From Escherichia phage EC.W2-6: DNA of 64,000 nt. Of this stretch, positions 9,294-46,913 are shown piece after piece. The stretch lies in the sequence record PP445229.1. One strand, given 5' to 3'. A model generated the notes under the pieces. The model saw only the letters and a program-made list of their open reading frames with translations. It ran no database searches and was not told where the DNA came from. The first letter of the stretch is position 1. Every line of letters starts with the position of its first letter. Made by a program: the position numbers and the translations under genes.

Positions 9294-9569
9294 ATGTCTA
9301 AAGTAATTAAGTTTTATAGCGATCAGTGTGCTCCATGTAAAGCAATGGCTCCTACCTTTGAGAAGGTTGTTAAGGAGTTTGATGTAGAAGTGGAAGAGAT
9401 TAACATCCTTGAAGGTGATGGTCGTGAACAAGCTGTTAAGTATGGTGTACGAAGTATCCCTGCTTTCGTTGTGCCTGACCGTAACAGTGGTGCGCACTAC
9501 AGCCTCTCCGGTATGCAGACTGAAGCAAACCTGAAAGCATTTTTGGACACAGCCCTGAGAAATAAGTAA
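9294..9569 (+). CDS. thioredoxin
   Basis: CAPC active site in a ~90-aa thioredoxin-fold-sized protein with the cis-Pro context (IPAF). Confidence 0.75.
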   Translation: MSKVIKFYSDQCAPCKAMAPTFEKVVKEFDVEVEEINILEGDGREQAVKYGVRSIPAFVVPDRNSGAHYSLSGMQTEANLKAFLDTALRNK

Positions 9570-9584
9570 TAAGGATATTCACGG

Positions 9585-10241
9585 ATGAATGAACAACTAC
9601 AAGCAACATTAATCGAAGCTATGGGAAGTGATCGTAGCGTAGTAAACGCAGCTCGAGTTTCCTTTGGCGTAACCCGTGAAGGTGATTTAAATGAACGTGA
9701 TGAACGTCTCATCAACTTTCTCGCAAGAGAGAAGCATGTTACCCCATTCCGACACCCGCAAGTCAGTTTCCGATGCAAAGCACCTATCGCAATTGCGAGA
9801 CAGCTGGGCAAGCATCAGGTTGGATTCTCGTGGAACGAAATGTCCCGGCGGTATAAAGATGGAGCAGTTGAAGTCTTCATCCCTAAAGAGATTTTTGCGA
9901 GACCTTCGGACCTCCATGCAGGTTCAGGGATTCAACTCATCGACGGAGAGCGAGCTGAAGCATTAATGCTGATTAATGATGCATATGAAGCTTCTCTAGC
10001 AGCATATGACAAGTTGATTGAATTTATTGCACCAGAGCAGGCTCGATTTGTTCTTCCTCAGGGGATGATCACTGAGTGGGTGTGGACTGGTTCTTTGTAT
10101 GGCTGGTTTGAGTTGTGCCGTCAGCGACTCTCCTCTCACGCTCAATATGAAGTTCGAGTGTTTGCTAAATCTCTAGATGAAGAGATGGCTAAACTCTACC
10201 CAATCTCGTGGGCAGCTCTGAAGAAAACTTTGGAGAGTTAA
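9585..10241 (+). CDS. thyX: ThyX-like flavin-dependent thymidylate synthase family protein (divergent signature motif)
   Basis: ARVSF, CKAPIAIARQ, SWNEMSRRY and SSHAQYEVR are collinear with ThyX blocks as I recall them; the canonical RHR is KHQ here. Confidence 0.65.
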   Translation: MNEQLQATLIEAMGSDRSVVNAARVSFGVTREGDLNERDERLINFLAREKHVTPFRHPQVSFRCKAPIAIARQLGKHQVGFSWNEMSRRYKDGAVEVFIPKEIFARPSDLHAGSGIQLIDGERAEALMLINDAYEASLAAYDKLIEFIAPEQARFVLPQGMITEWVWTGSLYGWFELCRQRLSSHAQYEVRVFAKSLDEEMAKLYPISWAALKKTLES

Positions 10242-10242
10242 A

Positions 10243-10491
10243 ATGGCTAGTAAAAGTATTTGGATTCTGAGTCGTGTTGAAGAGACAGACAGAGGGGAGT
10301 ACACAGAAGTGCTTTGCTCTTTCATTACATACCCCACAAAACAACAGCTTGAAGATGCTGGAGTAGAAATAAATCTTTCTCAATCTCTTTTTGATAAAAA
10401 GGTTTCCAAGTCAACAGCCCCATTCTTTGGTTATTACTACACACTTGATAGTTTGGAGCTACTGATGAATGATTCTTGTTTGGAGAATTAA
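10243..10491 (+). CDS. hypothetical protein (82 aa)
   Basis: ORF in operon context. Confidence 0.45.
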   Translation: MASKSIWILSRVEETDRGEYTEVLCSFITYPTKQQLEDAGVEINLSQSLFDKKVSKSTAPFFGYYYTLDSLELLMNDSCLEN

Positions 10492-10625
10492 TGTTGGAAG
10501 AAGATGACGATGTGTTCTGCACCAAGTGTGGGATGACAGTTGATGATGCATATGACCCAAGTGTAGAAATTTGTCCATGTTGCAGAGTATGTGAATATTG
10601 CTGTTCCCACAACTCAGAGGATTAG
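10491..10625 (+). CDS. small Cys-rich protein (44 aa)
   Basis: Not in track; TAATG overlap with upstream gene; CxxC ... CPCCRVCEYCC pattern. Confidence 0.3.
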   Translation: MLEEDDDVFCTKCGMTVDDAYDPSVEICPCCRVCEYCCSHNSED

Positions 10626-10637
10626 CAGGAATTCCTT

Positions 10638-10871
10638 ATGAAGATAAAACATATTACAGATATTCAGGAGGCATTTAGAATGCTTCCTCGAAGAGAGAAA
10701 GATAAGATTAAGAAGCTTATTCAAGTCTATGGTCATACATCTGAAGGTGATGTAGATTATATGCCTGCCACTTTTAGAGAATGCGGAATTGCTCGTAATT
10801 TCACATTTGATCATAAAGTATTTCAGCAATTCGTTGACCACTGGAGAAAAGATGGAAAAGAAAGTCTGTAG
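10638..10871 (+). CDS. hypothetical protein (77 aa)
   Basis: ORF with AGGAA Shine-Dalgarno. Confidence 0.45.
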   Translation: MKIKHITDIQEAFRMLPRREKDKIKKLIQVYGHTSEGDVDYMPATFRECGIARNFTFDHKVFQQFVDHWRKDGKESL

Positions 10872-11037
10872 CTTCTGTAATAAAGAGAAGACTGTCGCCA
10901 ACTTTAAACCTAATCCTGTAACTGGTCTGACCCATGTCATGTGCCACTCTTGCAGGATATATCTTGAAACAAAACACACTATCAATAGATTGCATTATTA
11001 TCACCCAACAACATTCAAATTTAAGGTTGTGAAATGA
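10852..11037 (+). CDS. small zinc-ribbon protein (61 aa)
   Basis: CSFC ... CHSC cysteine pairs; start taken at internal ATG with GGAGAA upstream. Confidence 0.4.
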   Translation: MEKKVCSFCNKEKTVANFKPNPVTGLTHVMCHSCRIYLETKHTINRLHYYHPTTFKFKVVK

Positions 11038-11363
11038 TTGACAGTAATACATTTAGGACTTCAAATGGAAGTGAAATAAGTCCCGCTGAAGTAATCAATC
11101 GGCATAGAAGGCAATTGATCATCCATTCCTATTTGTATTACTGGTTGGATGACCCTATCTGGTCTGATGATAAATGGCAACAAGTTGCTAATGATCTAGT
11201 GGAGCTGCAAGCTCTGTATCCAGAGCCTACCGGAGTCTTTGACAGTGAGTTCAAAGATTGGGATGGTTCTACAGGGATGCACCTCCCACACAATGAGACT
11301 GTTGCTTGTATGGCGACAGCTGTTTACAGGATTCATAAAGATATGAACCATGAAGTGCTCTAG
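11034..11363 (+). CDS. hypothetical protein (109 aa)
   Basis: ORF overlapping upstream stop. Confidence 0.45.
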   Translation: MIDSNTFRTSNGSEISPAEVINRHRRQLIIHSYLYYWLDDPIWSDDKWQQVANDLVELQALYPEPTGVFDSEFKDWDGSTGMHLPHNETVACMATAVYRIHKDMNHEVL

Positions 11364-11535
11364 ATGTGAAGGAACAAACCTTCATTTAAGTAACAAGGTT
11401 ATCAGAGAGCTTGCCAAAGGCTCTCCAACCAAAGGGAAGAACAAACGATTTACTAACGTCAGGGTTTATACAGCAATCTGCAAAGACTGCTTAACTACTG
11501 AGTGTCATTACGAAGAAATTGGAGAGCGTAAATGA
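11350..11535 (+). CDS. small zinc-ribbon protein (61 aa)
   Basis: CSRC ... CKDC pairs. Confidence 0.4.
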   Translation: MKCSRCEGTNLHLSNKVIRELAKGSPTKGKNKRFTNVRVYTAICKDCLTTECHYEEIGERK

Positions 11536-12269
11536 GTCGTCGTCAATCACGGAAAGAATCACGGAAAGACCTTCGTCGAGAAGCACTTGTTACTCGTAAG
11601 GGTAAGCGAGAGTATGAAGAGGTGGTTTTAGCAAAGCCTGTAGTCCCTCAGAACCAGTTTCAGTCTGAGCTACTCAATGCTATTAAGACTAAACAAGTTG
11701 TGTTCACAGACGCTCCTGCGGGCTGTGGTAAGACCTTTGTAATCACTTCCACGGTTATTGATGCACTGAAGAGTGGTAAGATTCAGAAGATCATCCTGAG
11801 TCGACCTTCAGTTGGCATGGGTAACTCTCTTGGGTTACTTCCGGGAGGAATGCGTGAGAAGTTTGAACCATACCTGATGCCTATCATTGATGTTATTACT
11901 CAGCGATACGGTAAGGGATTCTATGAATGCCAAATCGGAAATGGTAACATTGAATTTGTACCTCTGGAATATCTCCGTGGTCGCTCTTTCAACGATGCCA
12001 TTGTTATCGTAGATGAGTTCCAGAACACAACTAAGGATGAAGCCTTCTCCATCATGACTCGATTGGGAGAAACCTCTCAATTGTTCTGTATGGGTGATAC
12101 AAACCAGCATGATATGCGTGGTCGCGAGAGTGGTCTAACTTGGGCTACTAACTTTATTGATGAACACGATCTGTATGAGTTTGCTGAGATTGTAGATGGT
12201 GAATCAGATGATATTGTTCGTTCTGGTTTCTGTAAGGCGATTGTTAAAGCAATGGAAAAGAAAGCTTAA
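11532..12269 (+). CDS. phoH: PhoH-like ATPase
   Basis: Walker A DAPAGCGKTF, Walker B IVIVDEFQN and PhoH-type GDTNQHD motif. Confidence 0.8.
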   Translation: MSRRQSRKESRKDLRREALVTRKGKREYEEVVLAKPVVPQNQFQSELLNAIKTKQVVFTDAPAGCGKTFVITSTVIDALKSGKIQKIILSRPSVGMGNSLGLLPGGMREKFEPYLMPIIDVITQRYGKGFYECQIGNGNIEFVPLEYLRGRSFNDAIVIVDEFQNTTKDEAFSIMTRLGETSQLFCMGDTNQHDMRGRESGLTWATNFIDEHDLYEFAEIVDGESDDIVRSGFCKAIVKAMEKKA

Positions 12270-12280
12270 ACAGTAACTTA

Positions 12281-12289
12281 TAATGTATA
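12281..12289 (+). promoter_or_regulatory. TAATGTATA element (candidate phage-sigma-dependent promoter)
   Basis: Exact 9-mer about 37 nt upstream of the 12326 start codon. Confidence 0.45.
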
Positions 12290-12325
12290 CTCCTTAGTGT
12301 ACACTGATATATTAAGGAGTTTTAA

Positions 12326-12643
12326 ATGGCAGATCATGTAGGAAAGAGAGATTATGCACAAGAAAGACGTACCGCAATTGCCCGTGGTGAGACAGGCGTT
12401 GGGAGCAAGAGCGGAGATGCTCAGCGCCACCGTGCACGTCGCATCGTTGAAAAGCGCGATGGAAAAGCTGCTGTCAGAGGTAAAGACGTTGGACACAAAC
12501 GAGCTGTCAAGTCTGGAGGCTCTAATGCGTCAAGCAACTTACGTGTTGAATCAGTCAGCTCAAACCGTTCAAACGGCGGCAAAAGTGGTGATCGAGCTGG
12601 AAAAGCAAACGGAGCTAGGAAGGGGGCGTTGAGTGGTTCTTGA
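12326..12643 (+). CDS. basic Gly/Arg/Lys-rich low-complexity protein (KGG-repeat-like)
   Basis: AAGGAG Shine-Dalgarno 8 nt upstream; T/A-ending codon preference like the rest of the phage; TAATGTATA element about 37 nt upstream. Confidence 0.5.
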   Translation: MADHVGKRDYAQERRTAIARGETGVGSKSGDAQRHRARRIVEKRDGKAAVRGKDVGHKRAVKSGGSNASSNLRVESVSSNRSNGGKSGDRAGKANGARKGALSGS

Positions 12644-39120: not shown

Positions 39121-39924
39121 TTAGCTAATACGTCTCCAAATGTGAGCTGCTCTGAATGGTGGCAAAGTGTTAATAGGTTGACGAGAGATATCATCACGAC
39201 CAAGACTTACACTACCAGAGATTGTATGAGTGTGAGTATCATTATCAGTTCTCTGACTGTATCCACCACCCGGACTATACCAGTTTGGCGAGCTGTTATG
39301 ACCACTAGCATCTCCACGACCAAATACCATGTTGTGACTGTGAGTATTACTGGATAGAGAGAAGCTGGAGCCATTAACTGTCATCAAAGGTACGTTCTCA
39401 GTTCGAATAGTATTGAAGACACGACCACCAGTACCACCTGCTTGGAACTCAACTCTCTGAGCATTAGGGACAGAACCATCAGGGTTTACTACACCAGTAC
39501 CCATGATAACACCAGTCACTTTAGCCCAAGAGCCAAACCCTAAGGAGATGGAATCACCGGGGTTAATATCTTCTTCAGTGATGTAGTAAGAACCAATTCG
39601 ATAGAGCTTATTCTCCATCCAGTTCTTCATGAACGCTTCCATCTGGCCTTTAGTAACAACATCCTTGTCACCAGTTCCCGGAGTAACGTTCTTGATCATA
39701 AGACCACCAACATCCATTGAATCACCAGTAAACTTGAGCTTCTCTGACATAATCTTAAAGGTGTCAGAATCTATATCAACTGGTTCTGTAACATTGGGGA
39801 ATGTGTTCTGTAACGTTTGTTTAATGAGGCGGATTTGAGCCGCCCCTTCGTAGATGTAATCCCTGTCTCTAGGATAGAGCGGGTTTAAGTCGGTAATAAC
39901 TACCGCATTAGTTTCGATAGCCAA
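39121..39924 (-). CDS. tail fibre / receptor-binding-like protein (267 aa)
   Basis: Position between large tail gene and endolysin; Gly-rich beta composition. Confidence 0.35.
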   Translation of the reverse strand: MAIETNAVVITDLNPLYPRDRDYIYEGAAQIRLIKQTLQNTFPNVTEPVDIDSDTFKIMSEKLKFTGDSMDVGGLMIKNVTPGTGDKDVVTKGQMEAFMKNWMENKLYRIGSYYITEEDINPGDSISLGFGSWAKVTGVIMGTGVVNPDGSVPNAQRVEFQAGGTGGRVFNTIRTENVPLMTVNGSSFSLSSNTHSHNMVFGRGDASGHNSSPNWYSPGGGYSQRTDNDTHTHTISGSVSLGRDDISRQPINTLPPFRAAHIWRRIS

Positions 39925-39936
39925 AAGGCACCTCCA

Positions 39937-40428
39937 TTAATATTTACCTTCGGTGTAAAGATTAGCTTCTGCAACTCTTCTATTATGAAGACCCTGACTT
40001 CTCTGCTTCTCTCCCTTGACCGTTATTTTATCCCAACGAAGAAATTCGGAATAAACATCCCCCTTAACATCTCCATTGATTACCTTCCTTAACTTAGATG
40101 TGCTCAAAGCCCCACTGCCAACATTGAAGTTGAAAGAAGTGAGTGCATCAAACTCATGAACTAGTAAAGGAACCTTTATGTTCTTCTGAGTAGCACGAAC
40201 AGAGTCTTGTGTGTCTCTATCTAGCAGAGCTAGACAATCCTCTATAGAATACGTTAATCCTTGTCTAACCGGATAACCATTCATATCGCGCGTAGCCCCT
40301 ACACATATAGTCCAGATACCTGCGGAATCTTTATAAGCCTTGGTTCTCATACCCTCATGCTTCATGATGAATTCCATTCCAGCTGGGCTTAAGTTTAATT
40401 GTACAGGTGGCAATGCGGCGTTATCCAT
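39937..40428 (-). CDS. endolysin, T4-lysozyme-like (GH24)
   Basis: FIMKHEGMRTKAYKDSAGIWTICVGAT matches the catalytic E ... D ... T region of phage lysozymes. Confidence 0.8.
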   Translation of the reverse strand: MDNAALPPVQLNLSPAGMEFIMKHEGMRTKAYKDSAGIWTICVGATRDMNGYPVRQGLTYSIEDCLALLDRDTQDSVRATQKNIKVPLLVHEFDALTSFNFNVGSGALSTSKLRKVINGDVKGDVYSEFLRWDKITVKGEKQRSQGLHNRRVAEANLYTEGKY

Positions 40429-40457
40429 TTCTAACCTCCTTTTGTAGTCCCTTTAAA

Positions 40458-40676
40458 TTAAGGTAGTATCTTTCTCAGAGCGTTAGATTCAGCATCAGGG
40501 CAAATAACAACTAAGTTATTTTGAATTGTTCTCTGCTTGCATTGAGAGCTAAGCTTCTCTACTGGAGCAGGGACAGTTACTAATGGATGAACTGCGCCTA
40601 CAGGAACTGCGGTGGATACCACAACACCTGCGCCTAAACATATTAAACCATATGCAGCTTGTTTCATCATTTTCAT
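40458..40676 (-). CDS. small secreted protein (72 aa)
   Basis: N-terminal signal-peptide-like hydrophobic segment; two Cys in mature part. Confidence 0.4.
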   Translation of the reverse strand: MKMMKQAAYGLICLGAGVVVSTAVPVGAVHPLVTVPAPVEKLSSQCKQRTIQNNLVVICPDAESNALRKILP

Positions 40677-40742: not shown

Positions 40743-40766
40743 TCCTAAAAGCCCCCGAAGGGGCTT
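40743..40766 (-). terminator. rho-independent terminator (minus strand)
   Basis: GCCCC-CGAA-GGGGC hairpin with T-run in minus-strand sense, after the tail fibre gene. Confidence 0.5.
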
Positions 40767-40769
40767 ATC

Positions 40770-42938
40770 TCACTTCTCTGCTAACTTCGCTTCTAGAACT
40801 TCAATACGCTTCAGCAGATCTTGAACAACCTGCATGGTATCTAAAAGCATTGGAGTTGCATCCAACTCTTTCTGTTCCTGCTCTACCCCATCGTTGTCAT
40901 GGAATTTACGAGTTTTAACATAAAGAGGTTCAACTTTCTCTGCCTGCTGTGCAATGATACCACGACGAGTTCTTCCTTGATTATCATTGTTGTACACAAA
41001 CGATTTGAAATCCAAACCTTTTATCGCACGAATTGCTTCATCAGGAGAGATATCTTGGATGTTATGTTTCAACTTTTCATCAGATACAGGATTCATAGCA
41101 AGAGTATAAGTTCCGGTTGAACTTGGCTGCCAAGTGTAGTAGTAAATCTCGTTCCTGTTTGGTCGGAGAGTTAAACGACAACCATATTTGTTGTCTTCAT
41201 CTCCCGAAACATGCCAACAGGAATCAGCAAAAGATCCAGCATCATTGTGAATCATCCCTACATGGGTAGTAGTTTTGTATCCACCTTGGGATGCTTGGGA
41301 AGCACTCAGTATAGAGTTAAAAGAGTAGTTAGCACCAACCCCTTGGTTGTCTATAGAAAACGTCCCTCTGCGACTTCCTGTTTCACTCCAAGACATCAAT
41401 GTTCTAGACCGAGCAACATATCTATCAGAGTTCAGGGTTCCAGAATCGTCAAAAGCTAATTGCTTGGTAACTCCTTTGGTTTTATTATAAACATTGATAA
41501 TCCCATAATAAGCTCCGTCGATATAAGCATCAGTTTGGAGCGTAGTAGAGGCTTCTACTTCTGAACCTATTTTATATTCAGAAACAACTGAACCGCTAGT
41601 TACCCTAGTTCCACCAGCAGGACGGTTTGCATCACTGTTAATAACTGACCAAGAGGTGTTAGCAGCAGTAAAACCTCCATGAGCACGAATAGTCCAAACA
41701 CCTACAAAGTTACGGGTCAGAATCTCCTCAGTGGAGCGACCATAAATAGGACTGGAACGCGATGCGTCAAAGTTTGTGGATATGTATTTACCTCCAGCCC
41801 CCACTGGAGCCACATCGTCTGTAGAGGTGATTGATTGAATTGCCCCGTTAGTCGCCACCTGCCCCGGAGCGGAGGCTAGTGTTACCATTGTGTGAGGGGA
41901 CGCATATGTGATATTCGGTGCAGCAGAATCAAACACTTGGCCATTTGCAGCAGAATTACCACCATCACCACGGCCATATAAAGCTCTCAGTGACCCCTCT
42001 TGGATACCATTTCGGTCAGGAACACGGAAAGTTGTTGTACCATTTCCGGTAGAATACCTACCCCTCTGATAGATATTAGACAACCAAAGAGAGTCTTCAA
42101 TTGGGGATAGCAGTTGTGCATAAGCCCATAAATCTGGGTAGTCAGCACGATTCAAAAGCTGCCCATCCGACACAACCTCAAAAGCTGGGATGAAAGCTCG
42201 ACTGTCACGTAAATGGAAATCACCAATACCAAAGTTAGAGATACCGCTCATCGTAGGACCACCAGAGCCACCACCACTGTTTCGAAGCTGTCTCAAAGTA
42301 ACCGCATCATAATCACCAACTGCATCAGGGACAGTTACTGGTTGAGTGAAAGTAACTTTCTGTGTGAGCTGTTTGATATCAGAGTTAATCCCTGTACGAG
42401 TAACACCTACCGTACGACCTTTAGAGTCTTTAACATAAGAACCAATTGCAGCAAAAGGCAAATCCTCAATCTCAGGACGGTAACGTTTAGAATAAACTGG
42501 ATACTTAGTTTCTACCCCAGAGTCATTCTGGTCAACAACCTGAAGACGACCAGCAGAATGAATCTCTACACCTTGAACTGAAGAGGCATAACTACCAATC
42601 TTGATTGAGTTATCAGTAGTAACTTTCATCATATCAACTGATTCTACACCATTAGCTCCAGTAGAACGGAATGGGGTATCATTAACAACCCAAGGGTCTT
42701 CTCGGAACAGCGCACCAGACATAATAGGTTGAATCGAATCCAGCACAAAATCTTTAGATGCACCCTCTGTTTTAGTTTGATAGGTAGCAGCTGCGTCGGT
42801 TTTCTGTAAATATTTTCCGGTGAGGTTAATAGCTCCAGTCTGTCCATCTACAGTAGAAACCCCAACAACAGCCGCGTCTCTGGTTACAACCACATGAGGC
42901 ATCATTATACCAGATTTGGGCATTAATTCTCTAGACAT
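40770..42938 (-). CDS. tail fibre / tail spike with C-terminal intramolecular chaperone (peptidase S74-like) domain
   Basis: C-terminal SDEKLKHNIQDISPDEAIRAIKGLDFKSF ... GIIAQQAE matches the self-cleaving chaperone domain of endosialidase/L-shaped tail fibres as I recall it. Confidence 0.6.
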   Translation of the reverse strand: MSRELMPKSGIMMPHVVVTRDAAVVGVSTVDGQTGAINLTGKYLQKTDAAATYQTKTEGASKDFVLDSIQPIMSGALFREDPWVVNDTPFRSTGANGVESVDMMKVTTDNSIKIGSYASSVQGVEIHSAGRLQVVDQNDSGVETKYPVYSKRYRPEIEDLPFAAIGSYVKDSKGRTVGVTRTGINSDIKQLTQKVTFTQPVTVPDAVGDYDAVTLRQLRNSGGGSGGPTMSGISNFGIGDFHLRDSRAFIPAFEVVSDGQLLNRADYPDLWAYAQLLSPIEDSLWLSNIYQRGRYSTGNGTTTFRVPDRNGIQEGSLRALYGRGDGGNSAANGQVFDSAAPNITYASPHTMVTLASAPGQVATNGAIQSITSTDDVAPVGAGGKYISTNFDASRSSPIYGRSTEEILTRNFVGVWTIRAHGGFTAANTSWSVINSDANRPAGGTRVTSGSVVSEYKIGSEVEASTTLQTDAYIDGAYYGIINVYNKTKGVTKQLAFDDSGTLNSDRYVARSRTLMSWSETGSRRGTFSIDNQGVGANYSFNSILSASQASQGGYKTTTHVGMIHNDAGSFADSCWHVSGDEDNKYGCRLTLRPNRNEIYYYTWQPSSTGTYTLAMNPVSDEKLKHNIQDISPDEAIRAIKGLDFKSFVYNNDNQGRTRRGIIAQQAEKVEPLYVKTRKFHDNDGVEQEQKELDATPMLLDTMQVVQDLLKRIEVLEAKLAEK

Positions 42939-42978
42939 TTAAATCTCCTTAAAGCCCCCCGAAGGGAGCATTGTTAAA

Positions 42979-45537
42979 TTACTCAGAAGGCATTTCAACA
43001 CGAACTGAAATAAAAGCATCACTCGGGATATCAATAGGATCACCGTCAGAAAAACCTTCTATCTCATTTCTAGAAAAAACCGGAGAGGTTGGATGGGTTC
43101 TGTGATAGGTTTTAACTAAAATAGAACCATCTTCTTTAATCTCATAGTCCAGCCAAACCCTAGGTTGTTTGTTGCGGTCAGTAGGGATTTCAAAGCCGCC
43201 GTCAATGCCTCCCCATTTTGCATCTGCGTTTAAGCCAAGGCAACCGGTAATCAAGTACTCACCAACACCTTGCCGAATGACATTAACCCCCTCAGATTCC
43301 TCGTTCGTCTCATATCGACCGTCGGAGTAAATATGAACTACCGGAGATGCCGCTTTGATAAATCCGTTTACATCAACAGTGGTGTTTTTGTTTGTAAGAC
43401 AATGGACATATTTTATTGTTCCGTCTGCAATCTTTATTGCGTAAGATATGCGACCGTATTGTGAGGCTTCGCCACCAGACCCTGCATATGACACACCGTG
43501 GGCAATCCAGAAGTTAGTATCCTCTGGCTGCATATACCAGTAGCAGTTAAACAAGTCTAAAGTAAACAGGCCGTTCCCGGAGGCATGTTGGACACGATCC
43601 CCAGTACCACCTACGCCTGAATTTGCTGGGGTGTTACTTAGCGCTCCAATATTGAACCTTGCACCAGCAGCATCTCCAGCCCCTGTCCCACCATTAGCAA
43701 TAGGTACATTATCCAGAGTAGAAACACTTCCCAACCCTAGATTAGAACGAGCACTAGCAGCATTTTTAGCTCCAGTGCCTCCTCTTTCAACACCTAGAGC
43801 CAAATCGCCAACTCTTCCAGGCGAGGTACTGTAACATCCCCACCCATTATTATCCACAAAGAGGTAGGTTTCTTTGTTAGGAGATAGTAATCTACTCTCC
43901 CCAGAGGCTTGATCAACTCTATCTATAGATAAATTGGAACGAGCAGCATCAACAGTAGTTGCCCCTGTACCACCATTAGCTATAGGAATTGTGTTGAGTG
44001 TAGCTATGGAGCTTAGACCTAGATTAGAACGAGCACTAGCAGCGTCTTTAGCTCCAGTGCCTCCTTGTGTGACAGACAGTGCTGTAGTGAGTCCCGTGAG
44101 GGATGTTATATCAGAGTTTGTACCAGAAGCGGCAGCACCTAAAATTGATCTGGAGATGTTCACATTACCAGTAATCTCATCAGGAGCTTGGTTATTTACA
44201 GTAACAACATAAGGTTTCTGAGCCTGTACAGACCCATTGTACTGAGAGTCTTTATCAGAATCTGGTGCTCTTATTGCCTCCCCTCCAGTCCAATCAGGAA
44301 GTCGAATGTTGATAAAATTAGTAGAATCTGCATCGGTAATACCATCTGCCAATTTACCCCAAGAGAAGTATTGTTTAGCCCCTGCTTGCCATTCAGTTTC
44401 AGAAACAACAGGAAGTTGTCCACTGACAAGGGATGGGCCTAAATCTGAAGCAGACTCTTTAGACACTAGACGACCATCGGCTGGAAGAACGCCCGGATAG
44501 GAGATATTCTTTGTTGGGTCATAAGGGAACATTACCATCTCACCAAGATATAGAGAAGGGTTTCCTGTTGGAATGGTAATGTCAATATTACCACTGGAGT
44601 CTGGAGAACGGGAATTAACAGTAAGAATTCTACCTTCAGTTTTAACAGGAGTTAATGTTTTGTTAGCAGCAACAGTATAAAATTCATACTTAGTAGCTTC
44701 CCAAACTAAGACCTTCTCACCAACTTGGCGATACTGAGCGTCAGCATCAGCTTCTGCTTTAGATTGATATGTCTTGGTGGTTTTATCAAACTTGTCATTA
44801 ATCTCTTGACGACTGTACTGAGCAACGTTCAGAACATTTCCTAAACCTACCGTCTCTTTGTTAAGCGTTAGAGCAACCTCTCCATCAAGAGCTGGACCGC
44901 CGTTAATAGAGACAGAACGGACAGATGGGATTAAGTTAGCAATGTTATCTAGAGTAGTTTTGTGGACGGTGTTGTCATCTTTGTCAACATAGAAACCTAA
45001 ATCACCTAGCTCTGGAACACCTGTAGGTGCTGTATCCAAATCCTTAACAGAACCATCTTTTCCGGGATCACCTTCTGGAATACCTAAAGAGATTACACCA
45101 GTGTTAGGATTAAAAGAGCCAGTAGCTGGAGTTCCCGGAGGGAGAGTTGTTACATCAACAGACATTCCTAACAGAACATCAAGCTGATTCTGGACTTCAA
45201 TAAGTTTTTGGTTAATGAGAGCAACGGCATTATTAGCATCCGATACTGCTGCGTTGGTTTGGGCAATCAGAGTCATCAAACGAGCATCTTGATCCTTAAA
45301 ATCCTGCTTAAGATCTTCAATATCCTGCTTCATCAGAACACCCTGTTGATATAGACGCTCTACTTCAGCGATTAAATCATCAATTGTACCAAACTTAGAT
45401 TCTGCTAGCAGTGCCCAATATTTGGAGTCAGCTGCATATTCTGCTGCTTGCTTGTAAGCTCCGATAGAGCCTTCAGTAGCACCAAACTGCCCAACGTTAT
45501 TCACTGCATCAGGTGCTTGGTTATTATAAACGATCAT
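42979..45537 (-). CDS. tail fibre protein with internal repeats
   Basis: N-terminal coiled coil; two copies of a ~45-aa unit (GGTGAKxAASARSNLGL ... PIANGGTGA). Confidence 0.55.
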   Translation of the reverse strand: MIVYNNQAPDAVNNVGQFGATEGSIGAYKQAAEYAADSKYWALLAESKFGTIDDLIAEVERLYQQGVLMKQDIEDLKQDFKDQDARLMTLIAQTNAAVSDANNAVALINQKLIEVQNQLDVLLGMSVDVTTLPPGTPATGSFNPNTGVISLGIPEGDPGKDGSVKDLDTAPTGVPELGDLGFYVDKDDNTVHKTTLDNIANLIPSVRSVSINGGPALDGEVALTLNKETVGLGNVLNVAQYSRQEINDKFDKTTKTYQSKAEADADAQYRQVGEKVLVWEATKYEFYTVAANKTLTPVKTEGRILTVNSRSPDSSGNIDITIPTGNPSLYLGEMVMFPYDPTKNISYPGVLPADGRLVSKESASDLGPSLVSGQLPVVSETEWQAGAKQYFSWGKLADGITDADSTNFINIRLPDWTGGEAIRAPDSDKDSQYNGSVQAQKPYVVTVNNQAPDEITGNVNISRSILGAAASGTNSDITSLTGLTTALSVTQGGTGAKDAASARSNLGLSSIATLNTIPIANGGTGATTVDAARSNLSIDRVDQASGESRLLSPNKETYLFVDNNGWGCYSTSPGRVGDLALGVERGGTGAKNAASARSNLGLGSVSTLDNVPIANGGTGAGDAAGARFNIGALSNTPANSGVGGTGDRVQHASGNGLFTLDLFNCYWYMQPEDTNFWIAHGVSYAGSGGEASQYGRISYAIKIADGTIKYVHCLTNKNTTVDVNGFIKAASPVVHIYSDGRYETNEESEGVNVIRQGVGEYLITGCLGLNADAKWGGIDGGFEIPTDRNKQPRVWLDYEIKEDGSILVKTYHRTHPTSPVFSRNEIEGFSDGDPIDIPSDAFISVRVEMPSE

Positions 45538-45546
45538 ATTATCTCC

Positions 45547-46299
45547 TTATACACGAGAAGTACGAATACCATAAATATCAGGCAAGCTGCTCTGAAGCCG
45601 AGTCATGTTATTCGGAATTGCGATAGGTGAACCTGAGTACTCTTGTTTCTTATTCTGCTCTACCATTTCATCAAGGATAGCTTTTCCTAATGCTGACCAT
45701 TTCTGAACACCGTTATCATCTTGAACAAAGAGACAAGCATGACGTAGGGTGAAGTACAGAAGAAGTTCTGGTGCGATAGTAAGAATAGCACTGGTATCTG
45801 TATCTTCGTGGAATTCCGGTGGGTCTGCATAATAGCTAAGAATCACTGAGTTTTCTGCTGGAATTAAAGGGCTTCCATCATCAGGATAAACAGGAGTATC
45901 TGCTTCAATACTAGGGTAGAAAATGAAACGACTCCCGAAACGAGCAAAGTTAACAGGTTGGTTATTCCAGTGAGATGGATTAATTGTTCCATGCTGTCTA
46001 CGATAGCTAATCTCCTCAGGAGAGGTTACTTGGAAGATTGTACCATCTTTGGCTCTCATCATCCATTGAGCTTCTAAGTAATCAGGAGGAATATAAGCTA
46101 CTCCATCTTTGATATCTAAATACACTTCTTTTTCCAGAGGAGGAATACGTAAGTTACGATAAATCTCTTTCTCTGCAAAGTTAATAAAGTTTGGAATTTG
46201 ATTAACAAATTCATCGTCGTCCCTATCTGCCCAGAGGGCCACGGCCTTCTTTAGCCACCCATAGGTATTGATGGGGTATTGAACATCTGGCATTGCCAT
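45547..46299 (-). CDS. hypothetical virion protein (250 aa), possible head-tail adaptor
   Basis: First gene after the capsid terminator; TAATGTATA element about 34 nt upstream of its start. Confidence 0.35.
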   Translation of the reverse strand: MAMPDVQYPINTYGWLKKAVALWADRDDDEFVNQIPNFINFAEKEIYRNLRIPPLEKEVYLDIKDGVAYIPPDYLEAQWMMRAKDGTIFQVTSPEEISYRRQHGTINPSHWNNQPVNFARFGSRFIFYPSIEADTPVYPDDGSPLIPAENSVILSYYADPPEFHEDTDTSAILTIAPELLLYFTLRHACLFVQDDNGVQKWSALGKAILDEMVEQNKKQEYSGSPIAIPNNMTRLQSSLPDIYGIRTSRV

Positions 46300-46361: not shown

Positions 46362-46392
46362 TTAAAACGAAAAAACCCCGCCCGAAGGCAGG
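46362..46392 (-). terminator. rho-independent terminator after the capsid/Ig-like ORF (minus strand)
   Basis: CCCTGCC-TTCG-GGCGGGG hairpin followed by TTTTTTCG in minus-strand sense. Confidence 0.6.
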
Positions 46393-46400
46393 GTCTGATT

Positions 46401-46913
46401 TTAAGCAGGTGTTACACCAGTAAAAGTGCATGTTGCATTGATGGACGGGTCAGCTGTCAAACTTGCTTGAACAGTAACTTCGCCACTTGCAGCAGCATCT
46501 AAGGTTAACGCACCAGCGGCGCTTACTGTACCGGCTTCTGTAGGAGTTACAACAAACGTGTAATCCGCAGCAGCAGAGTTAGTTACAGTAAACATGGTAG
46601 TGAAATTAGTGGAAGAACCACCAGTTTTACCCGTAATTGGACCCTTAGCTACAATAGTAGGAGCAGGAGCAACAATTTCAGAAATGGTTGCTGTACCAGA
46701 AACACCTTCTAAAGTTGCAGTAATGGATACATCAGTGGATTGAGACGCACTCGGAGCAGTATACAAACCAGACTGAGTGATAGAACCACCTCCTGTCACT
46801 GACCAAGTAAAGCCAGTTGTTTCGGTAGAACCATCACTTTTCTCCGCGCTTGCAGTGAACTGCCGAGTAGCCCCTGTCTCTAGACTTGCTAAAGACGCAG
46901 GGCTAACAGTCAC
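46401..46913 (-). CDS. Ig-like domain ORF, probable -1 frameshift extension of the major capsid protein
   Basis: Open in the -1 frame relative to the capsid gene from a GGGAAAG heptamer 4 codons before the capsid stop; Thr/Ser/Gly-rich Ig-like composition; hairpin terminator just downstream. Confidence 0.55.
   Translation of the reverse strand: MTVSPASLASLETGATRQFTASAEKSDGSTETTGFTWSVTGGGSITQSGLYTAPSASQSTDVSITATLEGVSGTATISEIVAPAPTIVAKGPITGKTGGSSTNFTTMFTVTNSAAADYTFVVTPTEAGTVSAAGALTLDAAASGEVTVQASLTADPSINATCTFTGVTPA

Follow-up and report, generated by a model that had tools for sequence, protein, structure and literature searches.

In SU10 (PDB 7z47, 7z4a, 7z4b, and 7z4f), gp12 (proximal) and gp13 (distal) are described as together forming a single long tail fibre, in which contact with the adaptor is made by the N-terminus of gp12 only; gp12 itself is resolved for residues 1-90 only (PMC9509320). 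The equivalent pairs of phiEco32 (gp14/gp15) and DT57C (LtfA/LtfB) have been reported to form branched fibres (PMC4728585). For phiEco32, the branched arrangement comes from a cryo-EM personal communication cited in that paper, where the other evidence is genetic and where the conserved trunk module is proposed as the docking site for the second fibre protein. ESI-MS of EP335 gp13 showed that the protein cleaves itself after Ser621, with a loss of 11.8 kDa (PMC8217332). A collar or T4 gp12-like first domain has been assigned in such orthologues by HHpred (PMC8217332) and by InterPro (PMC11990801), and the role of the short tail fibre has been described in SU10 (PMC9509320). Host range in Kuraviruses, phages that are often put forward for therapy against uropathogenic, avian-pathogenic, and Shiga-toxin-producing E. 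coli, depends on the long fibre; to engineer it, one has to know the ligand of each subunit and module and the place at which the subunits are connected.

We analyzed a 64,000-nucleotide stretch of Escherichia phage EC.W2-6 (PP445229.1; the window), which is 100% identical to Escherichia phage EC.W8-1, a Kuravirus. The original prediction, made from the sequence alone, had placed fibre genes for an 852-aa and a 722-aa protein at 40770-45537; the position is exact, and the genes lie on the minus strand at 42979..45537 (852 aa) and 40770..42938 (722 aa). Both genes are of a known kind, namely the subunits of the composite long tail fibre of a Kuravirus, and SU10 has the orthologous pair in identical gene order: adaptor, 852-aa gene, 722-aa gene, holin, endolysin, short fibre, and nozzle. 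The finding is real but ordinary, and it is already known: both proteins carry annotations, and structural and biochemical work has been done on their orthologues. The genes that frame the comparison are as follows.

45547..46299, minus strand: adaptor protein, 250 aa, attachment site of the long fibre (Pfam SU10_adaptor, E = 4.9e-29)
42979..45537, minus strand: 852-aa trunk ("proximal") subunit of the long tail fibre (ORF; orthologue of SU10 gp12, phiEco32 gp14, and EP335 gp12)
40770..42938, minus strand: 722-aa "distal" or T-shaped receptor-binding subunit (ORF; orthologue of SU10 gp13, phiEco32 gp15, and EP335 gp13)
39121..39924, minus strand: short tail fibre, 267 aa (Pfam Gp10_C)

Around the long-fibre genes, identity to SU10 is 99% for the adaptor, the short fibre, and the nozzle: 248 of 250 residues are shared between the adaptor and gp11, and 265 of 267 between the short fibre, with HxH motifs at residues 195-197 and 231-233, and gp16. 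The two long-fibre proteins showed no paralogy when one was compared with the other by BLASTP (best E = 0.91), and an NCBIfam search gave no matches.

In the 852-aa protein, three regions outside its repeats could be delimited by comparison with other fibres.

45268..45537, minus strand: residues 1-90, N-terminus that binds the adaptor, with the start of the coiled coil (likeness to SU10 gp12)
44119..44823, minus strand: residues 239-473, conserved trunk module, common to T5-like LtfA (sequence matches)
42985..43386, minus strand: residues 718-851, C-terminal tip domain PF25670 (Phage_tail_C_2; Pfam E = 9.3e-60)

PDB entry 7z47_D, the SU10 "putative tail fiber", matched this protein with E = 0 and was collinear over residues 1-508; identity to SU10 gp12 is 94% over residues 1-538. 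Within residues 1-90, 89 of 90 positions are identical to the part of gp12 that was built into the cryo-EM map (PMC9509320), and the AF2 model has helices at 22-123. The trunk module corresponds to residues 223-471 of LtfA, in the group of branched lateral fibres made up of DT57C/DT571/2 LtfA/LtfB and phiEco32 gp14/gp15 (PMC4728585, PMC10713586; 8hqz chain d), matching residues 242-454 of DT57C LtfA (8hqz_d) with E = 2.4e-47 and residues 223-442 of oldekolle LtfA at 43% identity. Among 34 homologues, invariant columns are dense up to approximately residue 467-470 and rare beyond. In comparisons of fibre pairs, the trunk keeps 75-98% identity and the distal half can be unrelated, some of the protein pairs being presumed to come from the same genome. 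Judged by sequence, the N-terminus and trunk are those of a Kuravirus long-fibre trunk subunit of the SU10 gp12/phiEco32 gp14 type.

The distal half of the 852-aa protein has other relatives. Compared with SU10 gp12, it is longer by a 94-aa stretch, which supplies an additional repeat block, and its segment upstream of the tip differs. Residues 580-852 match residues 144-397 of HK446 gp24, a side tail fibre, at 47% identity, and this match takes in one GGTGA block and the tip. For residues 482-852, the counterpart in TrudiRoth is the C-terminal half of its single lateral fibre. Lateral or side fibres with a PF25670 tip also occur in mEp237 and Dhillonvirus. All these fibres are single proteins in which the tip is the sole distal end, whereas the 852-aa trunk would also carry a second subunit. 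On these alignments, the C-terminal half makes up an exchangeable tip module, which in lambdoid and T5-like phages forms the free fibre end. A Foldseek search with the AF2 model of the 852-aa protein returned nothing significant (best E = 0.12).

The 722-aa protein is 74% identical to SU10 gp13, from which it differs in the allele of residues 421-618, and PHROG 6921 matches it over its full length. Its domains are as follows.

42783..42938, minus strand: residues 1-52, LtfB-type N-terminal docking peptide (sequence matches; docking putative)
41679..42332, minus strand: residues 203-420, conserved first receptor-binding-type domain (homology to DT57C LtfA)
41085..41678, minus strand: residues 421-618, variable second domain, "T5-like RBD2" in the literature (most variable part of the alignment)
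40773..41084, minus strand: residues 619-722, S74 intramolecular chaperone (Pfam, profile, and fold matches)
41082-41084 and 41067-41069, minus strand: codons of Ser619 and Lys624

The protein had been predicted to end in an S74-type chaperone on the strength of the stretch SDEKLKHNIQDISPDEAIRAIKGLDFKSF, which is residues 619-647, and the domain is genuine. Pfam Peptidase_S74 (PF13884) matched residues 619-672 with E = 8e-13 and 48.9 bits (cut-off 22), covering profile positions 1-55 of 58, and was found in all 120 of the homologues listed out of 811. The catalytic motif S619-D-E-K-L-K624 (S-D-x-x-x-K) is present; across 31 homologues (57-98% identity), Ser619 and Lys624 never vary, and at least 90% have Asp620. 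When the chaperone alone was run against the PDB with phmmer, it found DT57C LtfA only; the solved chaperone domains 7dc3, 8jov, 6f45, and 3gud came up when the family profile was used instead, and the motif S619-K624 aligns with SDERLK, SDRRIK, and SDERHK of 8jov, 6f45, and 3gud, respectively. The AF2 monomer models of both long-fibre proteins are poor (mean pLDDT 43.9 and 47.8), as expected for trimeric fibres, and the chaperone is the only usable domain in them, with a pLDDT of ~65-91 over residues 620-722. Foldseek matched this domain to 7dc3 (E = 2e-5, target-normalised TM ~0.6, rmsd 3.4 Å, 118 alignment columns) and to 3gw6 (E = 3e-3). The chaperones of endosialidase K1F (3gw6), GA-1 gp12 (3gud), S16 gp37 (6f45), and MyRF ICA (7dc3) have the same S-D-x-x-x-K where the domain begins; they too lie at the extreme C-terminus and have an alpha/beta fold that ends in a long helix. 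Identity to the solved S74 chaperones in fold alignments is 14-19%, and the chaperone of the 722-aa protein follows a fibre tip, not a sialidase beta-helix stalk.

Cleavage is predicted at Ser619|Asp620, giving a mature chain of 66.4 kDa and a fragment of 11.9 kDa. EP335 gp13, which is 57% identical to the 722-aa protein and has the same chaperone motif, aligns its Ser621|Asp622 with this site, and the measured loss of 11.8 kDa (PMC8217332) stands against the 11.9 kDa predicted here. The two proteins have different receptor-binding alleles: the cells bound by EP335 gp13 are O157 and O26, and the host of the phage studied here is ATCC 25922.

Upstream of the chaperone, the 722-aa protein combines an LtfB-type N-terminus with an LtfA-type receptor-binding part. 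Its N-terminus is 66% identical to residues 1-56 of oldekolle LtfB and matches T5-like phages; the reciprocal search gave 235 records, which include DT571/2 ltfB and Kuraviruses. In DT57C/DT571/2 LtfB, the homologous part is the N-terminal ~50 aa, and a C-terminal S74 chaperone is common to systems of the LtfA/LtfB type. Residues 203-721 are homologous to residues 559-1071 of DT57C LtfA (E = 6e-99). For the first receptor-binding-type domain, Pfam Collar scored 18.3 bits, below its cut-off of 24; the T4 gp12 match by hhalign was not significant for either fibre family profile (E = 0.33 for the 722-aa family and 0.12 for the other), and the 722-aa family profile did not reach gp12 entries in the PDB. 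The "T-shaped" dual-RBD fibres of the BASEL collection (Bas87 Gp10, Bas32 Gp24, and Bas99 Gp114; PMC11990801) belong to the same family and appear to share the layout of N-terminal attachment, putative gp12-like domain, putative T5-like tip, and chaperone; their T shape and two folds were not reproduced by the monomer model of the 722-aa protein, in which pLDDT is <50 over residues 1-432. Foldseek matched no fibre tip, from a model that is only moderately confident at residues 430-500 and 560-618, and T5 pb1 was not matched by the sequence of the 722-aa protein in the PDB. The allele of residues 421-618 shares 89.9% identity with the one in AnnaHegner (Bas87) and is 86-100% identical across Kuraviruses from very different hosts, and ~62-65% identical to those of T5-like phages. 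We considered this allele as a clue to the host and rejected it, as it is shared at 86-100% by phages from ETEC, CFT073, ATCC 25922, K-12, and Shigella.

The original prediction had read the locus as two tail fibres that act as dual receptor-binding proteins. Both gene products are tail-fibre proteins, labelled "tail fiber" in GenBank, and both have receptor-binding-type C-terminal modules, as two independent fibres would, each attached to the tail by itself and each with its own receptor. We give such a pair of separate fibres almost no credence: the fibre densities in SU10 are explained by six long fibres, held to the tail by gp12, and six short ones of gp16 (PMC9509320), and the N-terminus of the 722-aa protein lacks an adaptor- or nozzle-binding part and is instead of the LtfB type, which in DT57C/DT571/2 needs LtfA for attachment (PMC4728585). 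Single-chain versions also exist: DT57C LtfA (8hqz_d) and the LAMP proximal protein unite the trunk found in the 852-aa protein with the receptor-binding part found in the 722-aa protein. The two proteins thus do not stand as separate fibres, their orthologues forming one long fibre in SU10 (PMC9509320) and a branched pair in phiEco32/DT57C (PMC4728585); dual receptor binding may hold within one composite fibre, and the independent second fibre of this phage is the short fibre at 39121-39924. Within a single long fibre, the subunits could be joined end to end, with the 852-aa protein as a proximal rod only and the 722-aa protein, as sole receptor-binding subunit, docked on PF25670 at the elbow. 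In micrographs of SU10, the fibre has a single elbow between segments of 300 and 400 Å, and the two proteins are called proximal and distal (PMC9509320); predicted BASEL complexes attach the T-shaped protein to a "proximal fiber" (PMC11990801), and no target could be assigned to GFP-gp12 of EP335 (PMC8217332). Comparison of modules nevertheless favours a branched fibre, and we consider the end-to-end arrangement unlikely. In LAMP and IMEP8, the C-terminal half of the proximal protein is unrelated to that of the 852-aa protein, lacks PF25670, and has its own S74 domain at the end, yet the N-domain of the distal protein is 86-88% identical and the trunk 79-82% identical, some of these pairs being presumed to come from the same genome. 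The trunk module (245 phage records) is distributed almost exactly like the LtfB-type N-terminus (235 records), the two occurring together in about 235-245 phage genomes, whereas PF25670 (326 records, including Klebsiella, Acinetobacter, and Proteus phages) is uncoupled from that N-terminus. Besides generic GGTGA repeats and receptor-binding modules, T5-like LtfA/LtfB share only the trunk and the N-terminal ~50 aa with the pair studied here, and PF25670 is a free distal end in the single-protein fibres of HK446 and TrudiRoth. Co-occurrence and conservation could partly reflect shared ancestry. The modules found are those of an LtfA/LtfB-type branched fibre, with attachment to the side of the trunk as the inferred geometry. 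DT57C differs in having its receptor-binding module fused to the trunk protein, with LtfB as an added branch, whereas the EC.W2-6 trunk has a PF25670 tip and no chaperone at its end; the fibres also sit on a siphovirus tail tip in DT57C and on a podovirus adaptor in EC.W2-6.

The GGTGA repeats raise a related question of origin. The 852-aa protein was predicted to have internal repeats of ~45 aa; the repeats exist, but their size was imprecise, as they form two blocks of ~50 aa that lie 94 aa apart and are not in tandem.

43642..44082, minus strand: residues 486-632, repeat region (motif search and self-alignment)
43924-44082, minus strand: repeat block 1, residues 486-538
43642-43800, minus strand: repeat block 2, residues 580-632
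44014-44064, 43924-43974, 43732-43782, and 43642-43692, minus strand: four GGTGA..AR.N(L/I) motifs

The repeat is real and far beyond chance: residues 486-538 aligned to 580-632 with a local score of 173, compared with 35.9 ± 6.3 (maximum 60) for 500 shuffles. The motif GGTGA-x5-6-AR-x-N-(L/I) begins at residues 492, 522, 586, and 616, i.e., each block has two motifs 30 aa apart and a 41-aa spacer separates the blocks. At the DNA level, there are four 48-nt copies with spacings of 90, 192, and 90 nt. A recent tandem duplication with a function of its own (an extra ligand site, for example), as opposed to a generic shaft module, would explain why the outer-block copies, the 48-nt cores of both blocks, are 96% identical in DNA and why SU10 gp12 has one block only. 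We regard this origin as improbable. Module shuffling at a conserved linker motif fits better because the motif recurs in many unrelated fibres (among them the solved 8vbx gp47, the R2 pyocin fibre 6ct8, and 9zd7 gp92) and in LtfA/LtfB, because homologues of the 852-aa protein have from 0 to 5 copies in many arrangements, and because the spacer between the blocks is unrelated.

We suggest that a composite branched long fibre, in which a self-cleaved 722-aa subunit is carried on the 852-aa trunk, is the best explanation and probably the correct one. Homology, domain layout, catalytic residues, and module co-occurrence were computed here, and adaptor binding, cleavage, and O-antigen binding are taken from the literature on orthologues; we infer the branch point and the receptor-binding role of the 852-aa tip. 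There would be six long fibres per virion, as in SU10. The 852-aa protein would trimerise, bind the adaptor ring through residues 1-90, and continue as a coiled coil and then as the conserved trunk to approximately residue 470. The C-terminal S74 chaperone would aid trimerisation of the 722-aa protein and then cut itself off after Ser619 by means of the Ser619/Lys624 dyad, leaving the 66-kDa mature chain. The mature trimer would dock by its N-terminal ~50 residues on the trunk module (residues 239-473), most likely generating a branched fibre. One branch would be the 722-aa subunit with its two receptor-binding-type domains, and the other the C-terminal half of the 852-aa protein, with a shaft of GGTGA..ARxNLG repeats and the PF25670 tip at its end. 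This second branch is possibly an overlooked receptor-binding one. The long fibre would touch the cell first and reversibly, probably at O-antigen, and the short fibres and nozzle would act later. More tentatively, the branched organelle might bind receptors at as many as three sites, a pair on the 722-aa protein and a third on the PF25670 tip, with the number of GGTGA modules (0-5) setting the reach of the branch and the motif serving as a recombination joint for tip swaps; we hold this extension to be conceivable, though somewhat short of an even chance. The value of the comparison is modest, in that it adds comparative evidence favouring the branched model (phiEco32/DT57C) over the linear one (SU10).

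Outside the coding regions, tRNA and Rfam scans of the whole window found nothing, and promoter-like and terminator-like sites between 39900 and 46950 were not commoner than in shuffled sequence. The 722-aa gene is flanked by two copies of one hairpin.

42955..42968, minus strand: UUCG-loop hairpin between the two fibre genes (sequence)
42945-42950, minus strand: Shine-Dalgarno AAGGAG of the 722-aa gene, after this hairpin
40747..40764, minus strand: second copy of the UUCG-loop hairpin with a TTTT run, just past the stop codon of the 722-aa gene (sequence)

The hairpin sequence, CCCTTCGGGG, occurs twice in the window, against 0.02 occurrences expected, and the copy after the stop codon is kept at the equivalent position in SU10, LAMP, and IMEP8.

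The segment 40770-45537 holds exactly two open reading frames (ORFs), both on the minus strand. The DNA of the window is 100% identical to that of Escherichia phage EC.W8-1 (PQ030848.1), and coordinates coincide in both records; EC.W8-1 is entered as a Kuravirus of the Gordonclarkvirinae with E. coli ATCC 25922 as host, and both fibre genes are labeled "tail fiber" there. Genes in the window run in the order portal, scaffold, capsid, Ig-like protein, adaptor, 852-aa protein, 722-aa protein, holin, endolysin, 267-aa protein, and 1005-aa protein, and the Kuravirus SU10 has the same order from portal through the 1005-aa gene. The features considered are as follows:

39121-39924, short fibre, 267-aa ORF
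39937-40676, minus strand, holin (72 aa) and endolysin (163 aa, Phage_lysozyme)
40747-40764, minus strand, GC hairpin with UUCG loop, copy 2, after the 722-aa gene
40770..42938, minus strand, 722-aa ORF
42955-42968, minus strand, GC hairpin with UUCG loop, copy 1, after the 852-aa gene
42979..45537, minus strand, 852-aa ORF
46373-46396, minus strand, strong terminator-like hairpin (10 pairs, TTCG loop, T run) between the Ig-like and adaptor genes
46401-46913, minus strand, Ig-like protein (170 aa, weak Big_2) between the capsid and adaptor genes

The original prediction took the two ORFs for two tail fibres. Both products are tail-fibre proteins, but they are two subunits of one long fibre, an arrangement already known in this genus. 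SU10 gp12 is orthologous to the 852-aa protein (PDB 7z47_D, E = 0; 94% identity over residues 1-538), which retains 89 of the 90 gp12 residues built in the cryo-EM map; identity between the 722-aa protein and SU10 gp13 is 74%. The SU10 study described gp12 as the proximal and gp13 as the distal subunit of a single long fibre, six of which are joined to the adaptor via gp12, and the short fibre is gp16 (PMC9509320). The gp16 counterpart here is the 267-aa protein (265/267 residues identical; HxH motifs at residues 195 and 231). Hence, the phage has two kinds of fibre, the second of which, the short fibre, sits outside 40770-45537. An independent argument for a single long fibre comes from fused versions. 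LtfA, a lateral fibre protein of the T5-like phage DT57C, is a 1076-aa chain (PDB 8hqz chain d; PMC10713586). Its residues 242-454 are homologous to residues 253-473 of the 852-aa protein (E 2.4e-47), and its residues 559-1071 to residues 203-721 of the 722-aa protein (E 6e-99). The proximal protein of the Kuravirus LAMP is fused in the same way: its residues 1-470 share 82% identity with the 852-aa protein, and its residues 538-1068 share 44% with residues 168-722 of the 722-aa protein.

Golomidova et al. (PMC4728585) reported that LtfA residues 223-471 resemble residues 239-508 of phiEco32 gp14, that the first 45 aa of its partner LtfB resemble phiEco32 gp15, and, crediting cryo-EM data communicated to them personally, that the fibre made of gp14 and gp15 is branched. 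We probed the branching idea in four ways: module homology, conservation without the C-terminal half of the proximal protein, co-occurrence, and the tip module as a free end. In Tequintavirus oldekolle, the N-terminus of the LtfB-type protein is 66% identical to residues 1-52 of the 722-aa protein, and the LtfA-type protein shares 43% identity, over its residues 223-442, with residues 239-461 of the 852-aa protein. The proximal proteins of LAMP and IMEP8 are without the entire 474-852 half and end in an S74 domain of their own; their trunk residues 1-470 keep 79-82% identity to the 852-aa protein, and residues 1-202 of their distal proteins keep 86-88% identity to the 722-aa protein. The trunk module (852-aa residues 253-473) occurs in 245 phage records (Escherichia 112, Salmonella 95, "Phage" 7, "Bacteriophage" 6, Shigella 5, Klebsiella 3), and the breakdown is almost identical for the 235 records with the LtfB-type N-terminus (60-aa query; 111, 91, 7, 6, 5, and 3, respectively). 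The PF25670 tip of the 852-aa protein differs from both, its 326 records including phages of Klebsiella (60), Acinetobacter (51), and Proteus (18). This type of tip module is the free distal end of the fibre in lambdoid HK446, whose 427-aa side tail fibre is 47% identical over residues 144-397 to 852-aa residues 580-852, and in TrudiRoth, whose single lateral fibre aligns through its C-terminal half with 852-aa residues 482-852. A 35-aa TrudiRoth ORF labeled "tail fiber protein" (5540-5647 of that locus) adjoins this fibre gene downstream and resembles neither the LtfB-type N-terminus nor the 852-aa or 722-aa protein.

Together, these four lines point to docking of the 722-aa protein on the trunk of the 852-aa protein, whose C-terminal half would then be a second branch. 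On this sequence evidence, the long fibre is probably branched. A linear fibre would fit the SU10 micrographs, which were interpreted as showing one rod bent at an elbow between segments of 300 and 400 Å; only 90 residues of that fibre were resolved (PMC9509320). Our AF2 models are monomers, and the interface between the 852-aa and 722-aa proteins is outside their reach. The 852-aa tip may have a role in receptor binding. In LAMP (locus positions 7001-12382) and IMEP8 (7001-11963), an S74 chaperone ends both long-fibre proteins. The LAMP proximal protein is the trunk fused to a second T-shaped receptor-binding module, and its fibre would carry two such modules.

A self-cleaving chaperone had been proposed from a C-terminal string that corresponds to residues 619-647 of the 722-aa protein, and the S74 assignment is correct. 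Residues 619-672 score 48.9 bits with Pfam Peptidase_S74 (E 8e-13), for which the cut-off is 22. Across an alignment of 31 homologues (57-98% identity), Ser619 and Lys624 never vary and Asp620 rarely does. The profile of this alignment reaches the solved chaperones of MyRF (7dc3), a phage fibre (8jov), S16 gp37 (6f45), and GA-1 gp12 (3gud), in which S-D-x-R-x-K aligns with S-D-E-K-L-K of the 722-aa protein. The AF2 monomer model is poor overall (mean pLDDT 43.9), but pLDDT reaches about 65-91 over residues 620-722, and the fold of this part resembles those of 7dc3 (E 2e-5) and of the endosialidase chaperone 3gw6 (E 3e-3). Cleavage is predicted to release an 11.9-kDa fragment and leave a mature chain of 66.4 kDa. 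Mass spectrometry of the fragment, suggested as a check in the original prediction, has in effect already been performed on the orthologue EP335 gp13: GFP-gp13, which binds O157 and O26 cells, lost 11.8 kDa by ESI-MS through a cut between Ser621 and Asp622 (PMC8217332). Ser621 of EP335 gp13 shares an alignment column with Ser619.

Elsewhere in the 722-aa protein, the variable residues 421-618 form an allele that is 86-100% identical among Kuraviruses from very different isolation hosts, in agreement with the remark from the BASEL collection that the corresponding domain does not track host range (PMC11990801). For residues 203-420, labeled gp12-like, the Pfam Collar match is below threshold, and hhalign of the 722-aa family against T4 gp12 was not significant.

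The repeat ascribed to the 852-aa protein is real, although it is not a tandem array of ~45-aa units. GGTGA-x5-6-AR-x-N-(L/I) starts at residues 492, 522, 586, and 616, forming two ~50-aa blocks 94 aa apart, each of two motifs 30 aa apart, with an unrelated 41-aa spacer between the blocks. Residues 486-538 align with 580-632 at a local score of 173, compared to 35.9 ± 6.3 (maximum 60) for 500 shuffles. In the DNA, four 48-nt copies lie at intervals of 90, 192, and 90 nt, with 96% identity between the first motif of one block and that of the other. SU10 gp12 lacks a 94-aa stretch that in the 852-aa protein is flanked by two copies of GGTGAK(D/N)AASARSNLGL. Among 120 homologues, the motif count ranges from 0 to 5, always beginning near residue 492, where family conservation stops. 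Deposited sequences of unrelated fibres with solved structures (8vbx gp47, R2 pyocin fibre 6ct8, and 9zd7 gp92) also contain the GGTGA motif, as do LtfA and LtfB. We read the repeat as a generic shaft and linker motif where fibre modules recombine, not special to this phage.

Each fibre gene is trailed by the same short UUCG-loop hairpin and then CTTT(T/A)AGGAG. CCCTTCGGGG has two sites in the 64-kb window, both at these hairpins, versus 0.02 expected, and the copy 3' of the distal gene is kept in SU10, LAMP, and IMEP8. Possible roles for the hairpin are weak termination, stabilization of the mRNA 3' end, or marking of a cassette boundary. SU10 has an annotated terminator at the position equivalent to 46373-46396; the fibre and lysis genes downstream therefore need read-through or bypass. 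The holin and endolysin genes interrupt the tail gene block, with long-fibre genes on one side and short-fibre and nozzle genes on the other, an unusual position for a lysis cassette yet one kept in SU10, LAMP, and IMEP8. The 170-aa Ig-like protein exceeds that of SU10 (about 132 aa) in length and is possibly a variable decoration of the head. No tRNA genes or Rfam families were found in the 64-kb window. At around 24-26 kb the GC skew reverses, a possible sign that transcription changes direction there.
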